Shown here: positions 46,059-50,763 of the stretch, one piece after another
Layout of the letters: each line of letters opens with the position of its first letter
How positions within the stretch are numbered: the first letter of the stretch is position 1
Made by a program: the position numbers and the translations under genes
DNA from: Bacillota bacterium
Lineage (GTDB): Bacteria; Bacillota; Clostridia; Christensenellales; Borkfalkiaceae
Assembly (NCBI GenBank): GCA_019423125.1
Contig: JAHZBZ010000006.1
Location: 42,404-106,403, forward strand
Reading direction: 5' to 3'
Length of the DNA stretch: 64,000 nt
Notes under the pieces: model-generated
The model's input: the letters and a program-made list of their open reading frames with translations, nothing else
What the model was told of the DNA's origin: nothing
The model's database searches: none

Positions 46059-46595
46059 ATGATCCGTATTTTATTGGCGGGCCAGGGCGGCCAGGGCGTG
46101 CTCAGCGCGGGGAAATTCCTCGCCGAGAGCGGACTGCACGAGGGCAAGGAGGTCTCCTATCTCCCCGCGTACGGCCCCGAAATGCGCGGCGGCACCGCGA
46201 ACTGTTCGGTCATCATCGCCGAGGAGGAGATCGCGTCGCCCCTCTGCAACAACCCCGACGTGCTCATCGCGCTCAACGGTCCCAGCTTTCATAAATTTGC
46301 GCCCCGCGTGAAGAGCGGCGGCATCATCCTCGTCAACGGCTCCGTTTCCGACTGCTATGCGGGGCGTGACGACGTGCGCATCTGCGACGTCGCCGCAGGC
46401 GACATCGCCCTCGAGGCGGGCGACGTACGCTCGGCGAACATGGTCATGCTCGGCGCGTTCATCGCGCTCACGGGCGCCGTCAAGGAGCGCAGTATCTTCA
46501 ACTGCCTGAACGAAAAGTTCGTCGGCAAGCCGCATGTACTCGATTGCAACCGCGCCGCTTTCGAAGCCGGCGTTGCCGCGGTCAAAAAGAGCTGA
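46059..46595 (+). CDS. 2-oxoacid:ferredoxin oxidoreductase gamma subunit
   Basis: LLAGQGGQGVLSAGKFLA...YGPEMRGGTANC. Confidence 0.9.
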   Translation: MIRILLAGQGGQGVLSAGKFLAESGLHEGKEVSYLPAYGPEMRGGTANCSVIIAEEEIASPLCNNPDVLIALNGPSFHKFAPRVKSGGIILVNGSVSDCYAGRDDVRICDVAAGDIALEAGDVRSANMVMLGAFIALTGAVKERSIFNCLNEKFVGKPHVLDCNRAAFEAGVAAVKKS

Positions 46596-46634
46596 ATTAC
46601 TGCTCCGGCGGCAAAGGAAAAATGTTCAGGGAAA

Positions 46635-46662
46635 AACCGTCCGTTTTTTCGGGCGGTTTTTT
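46635..46662 (+). terminator. Intrinsic terminator after the oxidoreductase operon
   Basis: AACCGTCCG-TTTTTT-CGGGCGGTT followed by TTTT. Confidence 0.75.
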
Positions 46663-46671
46663 ATCGTTTGA

Positions 46672-46700
46672 TTGCATTTGAGCGGAAACGGTGCTATAAT
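46672..46700 (+). promoter_or_regulatory. Sigma-70-like promoter (extended -10) of the lipoprotein gene
   Basis: TTGCAT (46672-46677), 17-nt spacer, TGcTATAAT (-10 at 46695-46700). Confidence 0.55.
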
Positions 46701-46813
46701 ATAGCCAATCCCATGCAGCTGCAGCTGCGGATTTTTGAACCAAAAATCCGTGTACGTTTATCGGAAAACGGTATAAAGGCGCACTGCATGGCGAAAAAGG
46801 AGGAAGTGCAGGA

Positions 46814-47572
46814 ATGAAAAAAGTGATCACAGGTATTCTGGCGGCGCTTCTGGCGCTGTCTGCGGGCGCGTTCTTCGCCGCCTGCGGCGGGGCTCCGGAT
46901 GAAGGGGACGACAACACCGATCCCACCGTCTACACAGTCACCGCCGAGGAATCGGATTTTTACGACGTGAACGGGCAAACGCGCTCTGCGACCGCGGGCA
47001 GCGCGGCATATGTCGCAATTGAACCGCAGTTTGACGCGGTCAGCATCGACAAGGTTCTTTTCAACGGGCAGGAATGCACGGAGAGCGCAACCGAGGCGAA
47101 CCGCTACGAATTCACCATGCCAGCGGCAAACGTCGAAATCACCGTCGAATACAGCTTTACCGACAACGAGTCGGATAACTTTTTGGAGTGGAACAGCGAA
47201 AATCCTTCCTCCTTTGTCATGACGACCGATGCGGAGGAAGAGCGGTACAATCCGCAATACGATACAAGCGGGAATCGGCTGACGGCGGATGTATTTAAGT
47301 CTCCGTCGCAATCGGGCGGCTATTTTTCCAGTCATGAGGAGACGGCGTTTTCCATGAATCAAGACGTCATCCCCGACGAAGCGTTGAGCGTTTCTGCTCT
47401 CCACGCAAACAGCAATTATCCGAACGATGCAACGGGATTTGAAGTCAGGATCGACCGTTCGAAAATCAGCGCCGGCACCGCGCAAATCGTGCTCCGCGTC
47501 GAAAACGAGCATAAATTCGGCGACGCGGCTCTGCTCGTCATCACCGTCGAAGTTACGGACGCGGCAGCTTAA
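46814..47572 (+). CDS. Hypothetical lipoprotein
   Basis: Lipobox GAFFAAC|GG. AAAGGAGG lies upstream. No family was recognised. Confidence 0.6.
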   Translation: MKKVITGILAALLALSAGAFFAACGGAPDEGDDNTDPTVYTVTAEESDFYDVNGQTRSATAGSAAYVAIEPQFDAVSIDKVLFNGQECTESATEANRYEFTMPAANVEITVEYSFTDNESDNFLEWNSENPSSFVMTTDAEEERYNPQYDTSGNRLTADVFKSPSQSGGYFSSHEETAFSMNQDVIPDEALSVSALHANSNYPNDATGFEVRIDRSKISAGTAQIVLRVENEHKFGDAALLVITVEVTDAAA

Positions 47573-47590
47573 ATTATCTAAAATTGACAA

Positions 47591-47625
47591 AAGGCTCTCC
47601 CTGCGGAGAGCCTTTTCTCTTTCTC
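47591..47625 (+). terminator. Intrinsic terminator
   Basis: AAGGCTCTCC-CTGC-GGAGAGCCTT followed by TTCTCTTTC. Confidence 0.7.
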
Positions 47626-47883
47626 GGGCGGGCAATTTTGTTGCCGCCTTTTTGCCAATCTCGCCTGCGGTTGCCTGCGGCGCGGTTTGTACGTCGTTCC
47701 GCCCGAGGCGTCGGCGCCGTGCAGCGGATCGCCGCCCGGGAGGAGGGGCGCGCAATGCCCCGTCCGTCCGGCTCCCGGCAAAGGTTCGCCGCCCTTGTGC
47801 GGCAGGGTATCCGTACCGCATGCCTCCCGCGGGGCAAGGGGAAGCCGTATAACGGAACGCTTTCGCTCCTTGCGCAAATAAAG

Positions 47884-48413
47884 AAAAACCCGAGCCGCCT
47901 AAAACAGCGCCTCGGGCATAGAATTTCGTATTCAGTTGTAGGGGAACCGATCAGACGGCATCTCTACGTTTACGCTATAATCAGCGCGGCAGCCTCCCGC
48001 CAGCTGTTCGCTCGGCTACGCCGCTATCATTTTCAGATTTACGTCTTTTAAGCCGTTCCCGTCCTAAAATCGTACATTGGACCGCCCTCCGTTTAAGCAA
48101 GTTTCCTCAGGTCGGATTTGTACATACAGTACCTCCCTTGCCCGTCTTGCGTGGAGCACCCCTCTCTTCGTGTCTTGCAGCACTCTTTTCCGATCGCCGT
48201 AGTGTGATGCGAAGAGACCGAATGTTCCCGCTCGATTGCCCTCGCAAAATTCTTTACCTTTCTCCTTTCCTTTTTACCCCTCGCGCCGATGTTCTTTGTG
48301 CACATTTCCTTAGGAAGAAACCGACGCAATCAAGTGTGTTGGGAGAGGGCAATTCTGCGTGCCGTCCGAGCTTGAGTCGTACCGAGGGAAAGATGGGATT
48401 TTTCCCTTAGGTC
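47884..48413 (-). ncRNA. Candidate large (~0.53 kb) structured noncoding RNA, class unassigned
   Basis: Bounded by a consensus promoter (48420-48447) and an intrinsic terminator (47884-47916). GC is about 50% against about 65% in the flanks. No credible ORF in any frame. Long-range complementary segments are present. See the findings. Confidence 0.5.
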
Positions 48414-48419
48414 ACTTTT

Positions 48420-48447
48420 ATTATACCATGCTTTTCCGTTTTGTCAA
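48420..48447 (-). promoter_or_regulatory. Consensus sigma-70 promoter driving the ncRNA candidate
   Basis: On the minus strand: TTGACA (48447-48442), 16-nt spacer, TATAAT (48425-48420). An A/T-rich tract lies immediately upstream (48448-48480). Confidence 0.65.
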
Positions 48448-48494
48448 GGGGGAAATGTGAAAAAAATTAAAATTTTTTGTGAAAAACTCACGGC

Positions 48495-49694
48495 TTATCG
48501 CAGGGTGTCGAAGCGGATGTCAAAGGCGGGGCGAAGCCCCTGCGGCAACAGGTCCTTCACTTCATTATATGCGCGCGGGTGAAAGCGGTGCAGCTTTTGC
48601 GCCGCGTCGAACAGGTCGCATCCCGCCGCCGACGCCTTTTCCAATACGGAAGAAAGAAGCGCTTTGAACTTTTCTTCGGCGGCGCGCAGTACATGTTCGG
48701 GCACGATCGAAGTCTCGGCGATCTCCACGAGGCTCGCGCTCTTGTTCGCGTCGGTGACCTGTGCCGCAACGCGGATGCGGAAGGTCAGGCGGGGCACGCC
48801 GCCCGGCGCGTCCGCCTTCACGCTCCGCTTTTTGATCTTCATCTTGAGCGAATAGGTCACTTCCTCTCCCTCTTCAAGGACGGTCACCTTTCCCTCCGCG
48901 AGGTCGGTGGGGGAGCAGGCGAGGTTGAACGCGAGCGTCTCCTCGTCGTCGAGCACGGCGGCGCGCTTTCCGCCCGCGAACAGCATCGTCCTTGCGGCGT
49001 CGATGATCTCCTCCCCGTTTTTTTGTCCCTGCGCCTGTCCGCCTTCCTGCGCGGCGGCTGCGACCCCGCCGCTCTGCGGCGCGCCGCTGTCCCCGCTCGC
49101 TTCCTGTTTTGCGGCGAGAAAGGGCAAAAATCCGCTTCTCCCCTCCGAAAAATACCCCTTGGTGAAGTCTCTCAGGTTGATCGCGGTGATCCTGCCCGTC
49201 TTCTGCGCCTCGTCCGAGAGCACCTTTGTCACCGCGGAAGAGGTGAGATCCCCCGCGGGCGTCTTTGCGGAAAACAGCTCCTTTGCCGTGCCGCTGCACA
49301 CCGCGACGAGGCAGGAATCCTCCACAAATTCACTTCGCAGGAAATAATCGAGCACGGTGAACACGTCCTTTTCCGCCGTCTGCTCTCCGAGCAGGATGAG
49401 CCTGCAATGCACGAGGGTCGGGTACCACCCCGTCCGCCTGTTGAGCTCGGCGATCGCCTCGCCCATCGTCGCCGCGCCCTCGACGGTCACGTTGCTCGCG
49501 CCGCCTGTTCCGCTCGAATCGGGAACTGCGATCTGCGCGGTGACGTCCAGCCCGCCCTCTTCCGCCGCGTCGATCCCGATCGCGGTTACGATGGAGGTGC
49601 TGTGGATGTCGATGAGCCCGAAGTCGTTGGTGAAAAACAACAGCAGCAGAAACGCCGCGAAGAAGGCAACTGCCTTGCTGAACACTCTACGCAT
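48495..49694 (-). CDS. Ger(x)C family spore germination lipoprotein
   Basis: N-terminal signal, then FGLIDIHSTSIVTAIGID typical of GerAC/GerKC. Third gene of a ger operon. AAGGGAGGAAG lies upstream of the ATG at 49694. Confidence 0.85.
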   Translation of the reverse strand: MRRVFSKAVAFFAAFLLLLFFTNDFGLIDIHSTSIVTAIGIDAAEEGGLDVTAQIAVPDSSGTGGASNVTVEGAATMGEAIAELNRRTGWYPTLVHCRLILLGEQTAEKDVFTVLDYFLRSEFVEDSCLVAVCSGTAKELFSAKTPAGDLTSSAVTKVLSDEAQKTGRITAINLRDFTKGYFSEGRSGFLPFLAAKQEASGDSGAPQSGGVAAAAQEGGQAQGQKNGEEIIDAARTMLFAGGKRAAVLDDEETLAFNLACSPTDLAEGKVTVLEEGEEVTYSLKMKIKKRSVKADAPGGVPRLTFRIRVAAQVTDANKSASLVEIAETSIVPEHVLRAAEEKFKALLSSVLEKASAAGCDLFDAAQKLHRFHPRAYNEVKDLLPQGLRPAFDIRFDTLR

Positions 49695-50763
49695 TTTTCT
49701 TCCTCCCTTTCGCGAATGCGAAGAGGGCGGCGAGCGCGGGCAGAAGGTAGGCAAACAGCAGCGGCAGGAACCACAGCCGTTCGATCACGATCTGTTGCAA
49801 TTCGCGGTATGCGCCGCTGAAGAAAACGCTCGCCGCGAGCAGCGCTCCGTTGAGCAGGAGCGCGGGCACGAGCGGCTTGCACCCGATCGCCGATTTTGCG
49901 CAGTGCACGCTCAGCTGCATGGGCAGGCACGCCGCAAAGGAGAGCACGAGCGAGAGCGCATACACGAAGAGCAGGTCGATCCTGCCCAGCGAAGTGAACG
50001 CGGTCGTGTATTTTGCCGTCTGCGAGAGCGCGTATTGCTGGCTGAGCGACGTCTGCGCATAGATCCCGTAAAAGCACCCGAGAAAGAGCAGGGTCGCCGC
50101 CGCGCCGACGGCGTATCCCGCCGCGAGCTTTGCCGCGTCCCCCTTTTTCCGCTCGAAATGCCCGAGGAAAAAGAGCGGGTACAGGCAGTTCGCGTATTTT
50201 TCGATGCCGAACAGTCCGCCCTTGGCGATGCCCTCCGCGCCCGCGCCGCCCAGCGGCAGCAGCGCCGAGAAGTCCGCTTCGGGCAGGGAGAGCAGGAGAA
50301 GGGCGGAAAAGCAGAGCGCGAAGACGGGCAGAGACAGGTCCGCCGCCCGCCCGACGGCGCAAAATCCCTTCGTGCAGGCGTACAGGCTCACCGCGAAAAA
50401 GGGGATGAAGGAGAAAAGGGAGGGCACGTTCTCGTAAAAGGCGTGCAGGACAAAGATCTTCTGTTCGAGCAGGGGAAAGAAGGATGCCCATGCGAAATAC
50501 AGACAGAAGAGCAGATAGACGGCGCGCGCGAACGGCCGCCCGACGCCCTGTTCCAGAAGTCCGAACAGCGTCTTGTCCGTGCGTTTGGACATCGCAAACA
50601 CGAGCGCGAGCATCCCGCCCTCGAGCGCGATGCACGCCGCCGCCGAAAACAGAAGGTCGTTCCCCGCATAGTAGGCGAGGGTGGACGGGTATACGAGAAA
50701 GCGCGTCGCGGGGAGCACGACGGCGTAGAGCAGGGCGATCTGCCGCACGTTGATCTTATCCAT
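49687..50763 (-). CDS. Spore germination protein, GerAB/GerKB-type (APC-like permease)
   Basis: MDKINVRQIALLYAVV start, about 10 TM segments. Overlaps both neighbouring ger genes. Confidence 0.8.
   Translation of the reverse strand: MDKINVRQIALLYAVVLPATRFLVYPSTLAYYAGNDLLFSAAACIALEGGMLALVFAMSKRTDKTLFGLLEQGVGRPFARAVYLLFCLYFAWASFFPLLEQKIFVLHAFYENVPSLFSFIPFFAVSLYACTKGFCAVGRAADLSLPVFALCFSALLLLSLPEADFSALLPLGGAGAEGIAKGGLFGIEKYANCLYPLFFLGHFERKKGDAAKLAAGYAVGAAATLLFLGCFYGIYAQTSLSQQYALSQTAKYTTAFTSLGRIDLLFVYALSLVLSFAACLPMQLSVHCAKSAIGCKPLVPALLLNGALLAASVFFSGAYRELQQIVIERLWFLPLLFAYLLPALAALFAFAKGRKKNA

Follow-up and report, generated by a model that had tools for sequence, protein, structure and literature searches.

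A structured RNA gene with two conserved micro-ORFs linked to gerAC in uncultured gut Clostridia

Overview

We analysed a stretch of 64,000 nucleotides (nt) from a Bacillota bacterium (contig JAHZBZ010000006.1, positions 42,404 to 106,403), hereafter the window, and describe a locus on its minus strand just downstream of gerAC. The locus is read here as a gene for an RNA of about 530 nt that would be at once a highly structured RNA and the messenger RNA (mRNA) for one or two micro-peptides, its folding being coupled to translation; from the sequences compared, we give this reading about an even chance. The gene, its conservation, its helices and the coding signature of its first micro-open reading frame (micro-ORF) are direct observations.

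An earlier note on this DNA had proposed a large structured non-coding RNA of unknown class. The promoter and terminator of its own, the size of about 0.53 kb, the covarying structure and the absence of a known family stood, whereas the description as ORF-free and purely non-coding did not. The most conserved block holds two tandem micro-ORFs (ORF1 and ORF2), each preceded by a Shine-Dalgarno (SD) sequence (SD1, GGGAGG; SD2, GGAGGG), where the note had seen no coding signal and no SD. Because both are conserved together with their SD sequences and ORF1, to judge from its codon changes, is under protein-level purifying selection, calling the locus purely non-coding is most likely wrong.

The features of the locus are as follows, in the direction of the RNA.
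48449..48482, minus strand: A/T-rich UP-like tract 5' of the -35 element, read from the sequence; a AAAAATTTTTTTCAAAA-like tract is kept in 20/20 homologs
48420..48447, minus strand: sigma-70-type promoter with extended -10; TTGACAA and TGnTATAAT are invariant in 20/20 homologs
47884..48413, minus strand: the RNA, 530 nt; full-length nhmmer matches at 30 other loci
48381..48412, minus strand: P1 hairpin (ACC/GGU plus GGGAAA/UUUCCC); 100% paired, with A-U changed to G-C at two positions (AU:15 GC:4; AU:16 GC:1)
48137..48371, minus strand: body of the 5' domain, closed by P3 and holding P4-P7; P2 and P3 obtained by duplex folding in most lineages
48235..48353, minus strand: P5 region; 48353-48345 AUUGCCCUC with 48243-48235 GAGGGCAAU
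48152..48228, minus strand: P7 arm; stem of 48217-48210 UCUCUUCG with 48170-48163 CGAAGAGA
48132..48137, minus strand: SD1, GGGAGG, within the invariant GGAGGUACUG; predicted to pair with ACnnCUC at 48380-48374 (P2)
48093..48125, minus strand: ORF1, ten codons plus stop, MYKSDLRKLA; identified by peptide conservation and codon statistics
48079..48090, minus strand: SD2, GGAGGG, in a small hairpin GGA...UCC, GGAGGGCGGUCC, predicted by RNAalifold
48048..48077, minus strand: ORF2, nine codons plus stop, MYDFRTGTA; 9-10 codons in 20/20 homologs
47942..48060, minus strand: 3' domain, closed by H6 (48060-48055 GGGAAC with 47947-47942 GUUCCC)
47929..47937, minus strand: AACUGAAUA, unpaired, linking the 3' domain to the terminator, invariant in 19/19 aligned RNAs
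47884..47917, minus strand: terminal hairpin GCCCGAGGCGCUGUUUUAGGCGGCUCGGG followed by UUUUU, an intrinsic terminator in the window; recognised by sequence and a covarying stem

Conservation and distribution

The same RNA was found at 30 other loci. The first scan, in which the upstream GerAC protein was used as query against representative genomes, returned 80 loci from Christensenellales-like uncultured Clostridia. The homologous region was present in only one of them (L001), at the same position; its RNA is 72% identical to that of the window at the DNA level, and its GerAC protein is 52% identical. A metagenome scan with a degenerate pattern of the most conserved block resulted in 12 loci, all 12 being full-length homologs. 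Since this pattern presupposes the ORF1 peptide, these 12 loci are unusable for judging the conservation of ORF1. The ORF1-independent sample was composed of one contig each from 11 unseen clusters of 120 GerAC homologs, clustered at 80% identity, and the full-length RNA was present at 11 of the 11 loci thus reached through divergent GerAC proteins.

In ten of these 11 loci, the RNA lies directly 3' of gerAC on the same strand. The exception, L097, carries an intact RNA (L097:6405-6914, minus strand) about 2 kb downstream of gerAC and on the opposite strand, past an alpha/beta-hydrolase gene. Across loci, the gap between gerAC and the RNA ranged from about 45 to about 400 nt, and the genes past the RNA varied (2-oxoacid:ferredoxin oxidoreductase, ABC permease, sugar kinase, acetyltransferase). 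The GerAC proteins of the RNA-bearing lineages are only 45-60% identical to that of the window. Every lineage kept TTGACAA, TGnTATAAT, the UP-like tract, the 5' GACCnAAGGG and the terminal hairpin, and the length of 19 distinct homologous RNAs was 510-539 nt.

Among 79 more distant Christensenellales-type gerAC loci, no such RNA was detected by profile hidden Markov model, by covariance model R3 or by motif regular expressions. Two borderline R3 matches in the distant loci were set aside, as their sequence looks protein-coding. This absence indicates that the RNA is confined, as judged from the sequences searched, to one clade of uncultured gut Clostridia, in which it is tightly linked to gerAC.

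Public gene calls overlie the RNA at two loci (L096:2718-3311, minus strand; L102:4446-4631, plus strand; L102:4739-4843, minus strand). The predicted proteins, of 197, 61 and 34 amino acids (aa), had no Pfam hits, and the calls are probably spurious ORFs over an unannotated RNA gene.

Transcription signals

The promoter, terminator and depressed GC content reported in the earlier note were all recovered. TTGACA (48447-48442), a 16-nt spacer and TGgTATAAT (TATAAT at 48425-48420) match the consensus at 12/12 positions, with an extended -10 element. TTGACA-N16-18-TATAAT has two copies in the window against 0.00 expected from 100 shuffles. The second perfect copy, TTGACA-N17-TATAAT at 2765-2793 on the plus strand, is followed by AAGGAGG and by an ATG at 2816 that opens an ordinary ORF. 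From promoter spacing and the onset of conservation, the 5' end of the RNA would be G48413, with which the invariant GACCnAAGGG begins; on the other side, the RNA would end just past the U-run of the terminator.

The hairpin and U-run are present at 47917-47884, of which a simple terminator scan flagged only the inner stem, 47908-47894. The stem covaries among lineages (CCCGAG/CUCGGG, CCCGCGG/CCGCGGG, CCCGCAG/CUGCGGG). In about six lineages (L092, L081, L101, L099, L093, L097) the U-tail is weak, a YUUAUCC-like sequence standing 3' of the terminal hairpin in place of a U-run; there, the hairpin may be a processing or stability hairpin or a non-canonical terminator. The GC content of the RNA is 51.7% versus 62.3% for the window, and the 200-nt profile runs at 0.43-0.53 within the locus and 0.60-0.70 in the flanks. 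The RNA strand is rich in purines (A 28%, G 29%). Based on the consensus sigma-A promoter and the UP-like tract, we infer that the RNA is transcribed on its own and at a high level.

The position of the RNA could also mean that it is no separate gene but a cis-acting 3' element of the gerA operon, namely a terminator, a processing or stability module, or a regulator of germinant-receptor expression derived from the 3' untranslated region (3'-UTR). The RNA stands directly 3' of gerAC on the same strand at nearly all loci despite differing genes beyond it. Moreover, no obvious terminator was seen in the window between the gerAC stop (48495) and the RNA promoter, so that read-through from gerA would end at the RNA terminator. 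An operon element, however, would hardly be expected to keep an invariant consensus promoter and UP-like tract of its own in 20/20 homologs, to remain intact in L097 some 2 kb away on the opposite strand, to vary in its distance from gerAC by hundreds of nucleotides, or to be missing from the 79 more distant gerAC loci. We consider this explanation very improbable.

Coding signature of the micro-ORFs

The conservation of ORF1 was assessed in the 13 lineages found independently of the ORF1 pattern, namely the 11 GerAC-derived loci, L001 and the window. The peptide MY[K/R]SDLRKL, followed by one or two variable residues, is present in 12 of the 13, and ORF1 is 10-12 codons long. Its serine is encoded by four codons, and its leucine and arginine switch codon family (CUN/UUR, AGR/CGN) with the amino acid kept. 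The stop varies among TAA, TGA and TAG, and only two length changes occurred, each of exactly one inserted codon (L093, L095). The pooled pairwise ratio of nonsynonymous to synonymous differences (pN/pS) was 0.12-0.17 at a pS of 0.69, whereas the two remaining frames gave 1.09 and 1.41; given the kinship of the 13 lineages, the pairwise values are not independent. Such a pattern suggests translation of ORF1 and a role for the amino-acid sequence of its product. In L100 (RNA at L100:4548-5077), ORF1 reads MYNFYSRKLA; its codons 3-6 are off consensus and look like the N-terminus of ORF2 (MYNF/MYDF), which may reflect gene conversion between the two micro-ORFs.

ORF2 follows the family pattern MYx[FLYAV]xxG[TA][VAIG]x. 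The 5' strand of H6 is made up of its Gly-Thr codons, whose third-position changes are compensated in the partner strand: GGGAAC/GUUCCC becomes GGGGAC or GGGGCA with GUCUCU in L090, L102 and L103. Given its strong SD, translation of ORF2 is plausible. The longer ORFs of 78, 90 and 155 aa, which the earlier note called junk, do exist in the window, and none is preserved in the homologs; indels in the 5' domain have lengths not divisible by three and break the frame.

If the ORFs were incidental and owed their conservation to RNA-level constraints, the locus would make a structured RNA with no coding role, for instance a ribozyme, an oligomeric ornate RNA or a sponge or scaffold for proteins. 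This alternative would fit the dense covariation throughout the molecule. It would also fit the invariance of the SD-like GGAGG motifs and of AUGUAC at the nucleotide level, the Tyr codon, which is UAC in 40/40 ORF copies examined, the nearly invariant AAA-CUU, and the synonymous changes of ORF2 that covary with a distant strand. The variation of ORF1 tells otherwise: it is concentrated at synonymous sites, with the low pN/pS in the coding frame and values above 1 in the others; six-fold Leu and Arg codons change family with the residue retained, both length changes are of exactly one codon, and stops change identity while the frame is kept. A column-pair scan for a stacked RNA partner of the ORF1 columns, in itself too permissive, found no helix. 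A non-coding RNA is thus improbable.

GGUAC or GUAC recurs at four invariant sites (48378-48382, 48129-48133, 48120-48123 and 48072-48075), as CGGUAC after P1, within GGAGGUACUG at SD1, and in AUGUAC at both start codons. The recurrence suggests that, in addition to coding, these sites carry a repeated motif for pairing or for binding a protein.

Covarying RNA domains

The architecture was derived from per-sequence folds laid on the alignment and from RNAalifold on sub-alignments, with consistent results. Three covariance models were seeded from the window sequence alone and then used to align the relatives, and each region was compared with shuffles.
5' core (RNA positions 54-186; P4, P5, P6): 90.5% of cells paired versus 77.2% shuffled; compensatory changes in 25/36 pairs versus 11.8 +/- 1.9
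P7 arm (RNA positions 186-262): 88.5% of cells paired versus 65.1% shuffled; compensatory changes in 19/23 pairs, with 86 compensatory cells versus 28.4
3' domain (RNA positions 352-474; H6, H8, H7, H4, H5): 93.4% of cells paired versus 79.1% shuffled; compensatory changes in 21/27 pairs versus 10.2 +/- 1.6

None of 500 shuffles matched the observed number of compensatory pairs or the percentage paired in any of the three regions, and pairing fell to 40-53% of cells when partners were slid by 1-3 columns. Because the alignments were fitted to the window-derived structure and the sequences are related, the percent-paired values are somewhat flattering; the compensatory counts are inflated less, and their large excess is much harder to get from fitting alone.

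In the 5' domain, P3 is formed by 48371-48367 GCUCG with 48144-48140 CGGGC, replaced in other lineages by, for example, GUUCG/CGGAC and GCGCG/CGCGC. P5 encloses P6 (48329-48281) and a purine-rich joining region, with compensatory changes in 8/9 pairs of P5 and 6/9 pairs of P6a. The P7 stem encloses an invariant UCACAC (48207-48202) and a hairpin with the loop AUCGGAAAAGAG (48194-48183); its two outer helices show compensatory changes in 16/16 pairs. Both long-range pairings suggested in the earlier note proved to be helices that covary in the relatives, ATTGCCCTC/GAGGGCAAT being P5 and TCTCTTCG/CGAAGAGA the P7 stem. The homologs and covariation that the note had called for as a check were likewise obtained, at 30 loci and above shuffles in every domain tested. 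Inside the 3' domain are H8 (48046-48042/47957-47953), H7 (48038-48035/47963-47960), H4 (48024-47986) and H5 (47985-47974), the last with an invariant GAUUAU loop.

Some candidate pairings were discarded. With the variable helices misaligned, full-length RNAalifold on MAFFT alignments gave fragments only, plus some long-range pairs that were spurious, and sub-domain covariance models were used instead. The pyrimidine tract CCCUCUCCC was rejected as an anti-SD for SD2; it pairs with the P5 purine strand plus AGGG, with strong covariation. A local hairpin with an ACGC loop was dropped, as it clashes with P5 in L094 and is inconsistent across lineages, and a tertiary pairing of UCACAC with AUGUGC was unsupported, L083 having UGCG there.

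Proposed coupling of folding and translation

P3 and the predicted helix P2 close the 5' domain of about 280 nt (P1-P7); SD1 itself would serve as the 3' strand of P2. H6, which closes the 3' domain of about 120 nt, has one strand made of the final ORF2 codons, and the ORF2 stop lies between H6 and H8. In the mechanism we propose, the fold of the 5' domain would set the access to SD1, and a bound ligand or protein may affect that fold. A ribosome on ORF1 would open the SD2 hairpin, and a ribosome on ORF2 would melt H6 (and H8) and remodel the 3' domain. The conformation of the RNA would thus be tied to its state of translation, as in translational attenuation, the output being the RNA and its peptide and no downstream gene. 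The geometry is what would be expected if folding and translation excluded each other step by step. The anatomy was observed; for the relay, the chances seem evenly balanced.

Several points weigh against this reading. The single-sequence minimum free energy is unremarkable (z = -1.38), so that the case for structure rests on comparative data, in which the fitting of the alignments described above has to be allowed for. P2 (ACnnCUC/GGGAGGU), obtained by duplex folding in most lineages, is nearly invariant and its covariation weak, and the SD2 hairpin, 12-15 nt past the ORF1 stop, is also nearly invariant and beyond the covariation test. The ORF1 codons UAC, AAA and CUU are more invariant than coding alone demands, which points to an added RNA-level or protein-binding constraint, and the variation of ORF2 is explicable by RNA pairing alone. 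The dependence among the pairwise pN/pS values has been mentioned. Finally, that the locus is transcribed and translated is inferred from sequence alone, and so are the relay, a possible ligand and a possible connection with spore germination.

A simpler possibility is that the locus is a micro-peptide mRNA in which the 10-aa peptide, perhaps with that of ORF2, is the sole effector; the 5' domain would be a sensor, riboswitch-like or protein-binding, that controls SD1, and the 3' domain would do no more than stabilise or terminate the transcript. It would account for the strong protein-level selection on ORF1, for the predicted placement of SD1 in a helix that closes a large covarying domain, an arrangement known from translational riboswitches, and for a 3' domain that is swappable between strains with the 5' domain and ORFs unchanged (see below). 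Yet the 21/27 compensated pairs of the 3' domain and the invariant GAUUAU and AACUGAAUA exceed the needs of a stabiliser, and no known aptamer matches. In addition, a trans-acting peptide of 10 aa would be shorter than the functional bacterial small proteins known to us, the 14-aa peTrpL (PMC7298713) coming close. We regard this explanation as possible but somewhat unlikely.

Alternatively, the RNA might be an orphan ribosome-arrest sensor, in which the nascent ORF1 peptide stalls on an antibiotic of the peptidyl-transferase centre or on a metabolite and thereby unmasks SD2, as in the cat/cmlA leaders. The 10-12 codons of ORF1, its conserved amino-acid sequence and the next SD in a predicted hairpin shortly past its stop agree with such a sensor. 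M-x-K-[S/T]-D presumably resembles the cat-86 leader, which we take to be MVKTDKISS; this is a lead only, and the literature search found neither leader sequence. Against a sensor, no lineage has a resistance or biosynthetic gene downstream, known attenuators lack a 280-nt covarying upstream domain, and the variable C-terminal residue of ORF1 is contrary to arrest at termination. We therefore rate it as quite improbable.

The coupled RNA and mRNA that we favour could be part of something larger: a new class of translation-gated RNA machine with two exchangeable domains that fold independently and a relay of two micro-ORFs between them. Passing ribosomes, perhaps tuned by the nascent peptide MY[K/R]SDLRKL and by a ligand of the 5' domain, would switch the fold of an abundant RNA, which, with or without its peptide, would regulate germination or exit from dormancy in a family of gut Clostridia. 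This extension is speculative, and we hold it unlikely. The linkage to gerA, tight across lineages whose GerAC proteins are so divergent, suggests a role in spore germination.

Two alternative 3' domains in one species

The window and L091 belong to one species, with flanks 97-99% identical and GerAC 99.5% identical. Window positions 46538-48052 have no counterpart in L091, and the breakpoint within the RNA is the end of ORF2. The window-type cassette consists of the RNA 3' domain, a GC-rich spacer, a gene for a 252-aa lipoprotein-like protein and the 3' end of an oxidoreductase gamma gene, and resembles the L083/L088 lineage. In the L091-type cassette, another 3' domain takes its place in the RNA, and the lipoprotein gene is missing. 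In place of the spacer and this gene, L091 carries, directly 3' of the RNA (L091:10180-10457), a tandem array of 11.7 copies of a 24-nt unit, ATCTCCCCTTTCGCCCCTGCGCAA.

The window-type allele is present in the independent assemblies L104, L106, L107, L110 and L112 at 99.4-100% identity, and the L091-type allele in L105, L108, L109 and L111. The DNA sequencing runs behind L105-L113 include SRR29409643, SRR32392003 and SRR35949885. As both recur in independent assemblies, they represent a real polymorphism and not a chimeric assembly. The two RNA domains are, on this comparison of alleles, separable modules joined at the ORF block.

This mosaic state relative to L091, the GC content below that of the surroundings and the long junk ORFs that overlap the locus might be taken for signs of a decayed protein gene, a mobile-element remnant or an assembly artefact. 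No long ORF is conserved, however, and the indels of the 5' domain are out of frame; phage and plasmid collections gave no match, the window-type sequence recurs nearly unchanged in independent assemblies, and the covariation is incompatible with neutral decay. These findings refute decay or artefact for practical purposes.

Genomic neighbours

The context given in the earlier note was confirmed, with the gerA-gerB-gerC operon upstream on the same strand and the gene for the 252-aa protein, which has a lipoprotein-like N-terminus, converging on the RNA locus.
48495..49754, minus strand: gerAC, Ger(x)C spore-germination lipoprotein, the conserved upstream neighbour, outside the RNA; PF05504 and PF25198 on the identical protein P0001

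The mechanical ORF of gerAC opens at a TTG and has 419 aa. P0001, the identical protein in the database, is 399 aa long, so that translation probably begins 20 codons past the TTG. On the other side, an ORF-free spacer of 267 nt with 69% GC (47617-47883) separates the terminator of the RNA from that of the lipoprotein gene (47589-47616), which is bidirectional. No fold signal was seen in this spacer (z = -0.76), which is conserved in the L083 group only, and no conserved element was found 3' of the terminator across lineages.

Significance

Large, highly structured bacterial RNAs of unknown function are rare and, to our knowledge, have repeatedly led to new biochemistry. The locus adds a well-supported one from uncultured gut Clostridia, with the unusual trait of conserved micro-ORFs built into the helices that close two RNA domains. 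If the coupling is true, nature would here offer a stable RNA, in control of no gene downstream, that is remodelled by passing ribosomes; the locus would also include one of the shortest peptides under clear purifying selection. The two exchangeable 3'-domain alleles in one species offer a natural domain-swap experiment. A covariance model of the RNA would improve annotation, as public gene callers put spurious ORFs there. The RNA has a narrow taxonomic range, within uncultured relatives of Christensenellales among the gut Clostridia, and the reach of the finding is limited accordingly.

Comparison with known RNA systems

The whole window gave no match to Rfam 15 at gathering score, a collection that covers OLE, ROOL, GOLLD, raiA, 6S, RNase P, SRP, tmRNA, T-box and riboswitch families. 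At E <= 10, the region 47600-48700 gave chance-level matches only (SNORD49 at 18 bits, with a gathering score of 37, and P37 at 14.6 bits), and at nine homologous loci, with E <= 5, six scattered weak matches were obtained, no family occurring in more than one locus. This search, proposed in the earlier note as its first check, left the novelty of the RNA standing. ARAGORN found neither a transfer-messenger RNA (tmRNA) nor a tRNA in the window, in agreement with the note. A distant blastn search of phage and plasmid collections gave no match, a scan of viral contigs for the ORF1 pattern gave 0 matches, and a literature search on the peptide strings and on gerAC-linked RNAs returned nothing relevant.

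The large ornate RNAs OLE (RF01071), ROOL, GOLLD and raiA motif RNA share with this RNA a length of several hundred nucleotides, many covarying helices, invariant unpaired nucleotides, a presence among anaerobic Firmicutes/Clostridia, a gene that stands alone under its own promoter and a function not deducible from sequence. The earlier note had named ROOL, OLE and GOLLD as candidates; they are excluded as far as covariance models can tell, and the distribution here is much narrower. OLE is associated with oapA, and ROOL and GOLLD with prophage or tRNA regions, whereas the association here is with gerAC. We know of no OLE, ROOL, GOLLD or raiA RNA with conserved SD-preceded ORFs under protein-level selection.

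Dual-function small RNAs (sRNAs), such as Staphylococcus aureus RNAIII/hld, Bacillus subtilis SR1/SR1P and Sinorhizobium meliloti rnTrpL/peTrpL, likewise combine an independent structured transcript with a very small peptide. RNAIII, at about 514 nt, is similar in length to the RNA described here. As in these sRNAs, the small ORF has a coding signature, here that of ORF1, and the unit appears independent, with promoter and terminal hairpin kept in 20/20 homologs. The differences are that no sequence or structure homology was seen, that the peptide is shorter (10-12 aa), with two tandem ORFs, and that the end of ORF2 and, by prediction, both SDs form part of domain-closing helices. Of these systems, peTrpL is a 14-aa leader peptide that, like its sRNA, acts in trans (PMC7298713; bioRxiv 10.1101/606483).

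The attenuation leaders of cat-86, cmlA, ermC and msrD resemble the locus in a very short conserved ORF with the next ribosome-binding site in a nearby downstream hairpin, predicted in our case, which a ribosome on ORF1 could plausibly unmask. The conserved leader peptide has its counterpart in ORF1, by the peptide pattern (12/13 lineages) and pN/pS (0.12-0.17) given above. Unlike these leaders, the ORFs here stand between a 280-nt covarying domain upstream and a 120-nt domain downstream, in a chromosomal setting that is linked to gerA and not to resistance. No cis-regulated resistance or biosynthetic gene was found: the next ORF has 9-10 codons, and the genes beyond are convergent or variable.

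tmRNA (ssrA) is also a structured RNA with an internal frame of about ten codons. It is abundant, and its tag frame lacks a canonical SD and AUG, whereas here both ORFs have an SD and AUG, with no tRNA-like domain and no ALAA-type degron end. Translational riboswitches likewise have a covarying domain closed by a helix, in our case a predicted one, that takes in the SD of the following ORF; unlike them, this RNA matches no known aptamer, its domain is larger than typical aptamers, the ORF has only ten codons, and no conventional gene follows before the transcript ends some 200 nt further on.

The RNA thus falls outside the ornate RNAs because no covariance model matches it, and outside the attenuators because there is no regulated downstream gene. 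It represents a new family and, to the extent of our knowledge, a new arrangement, which mixes traits of ornate RNAs, dual-function RNAs and arrest-peptide attenuators.

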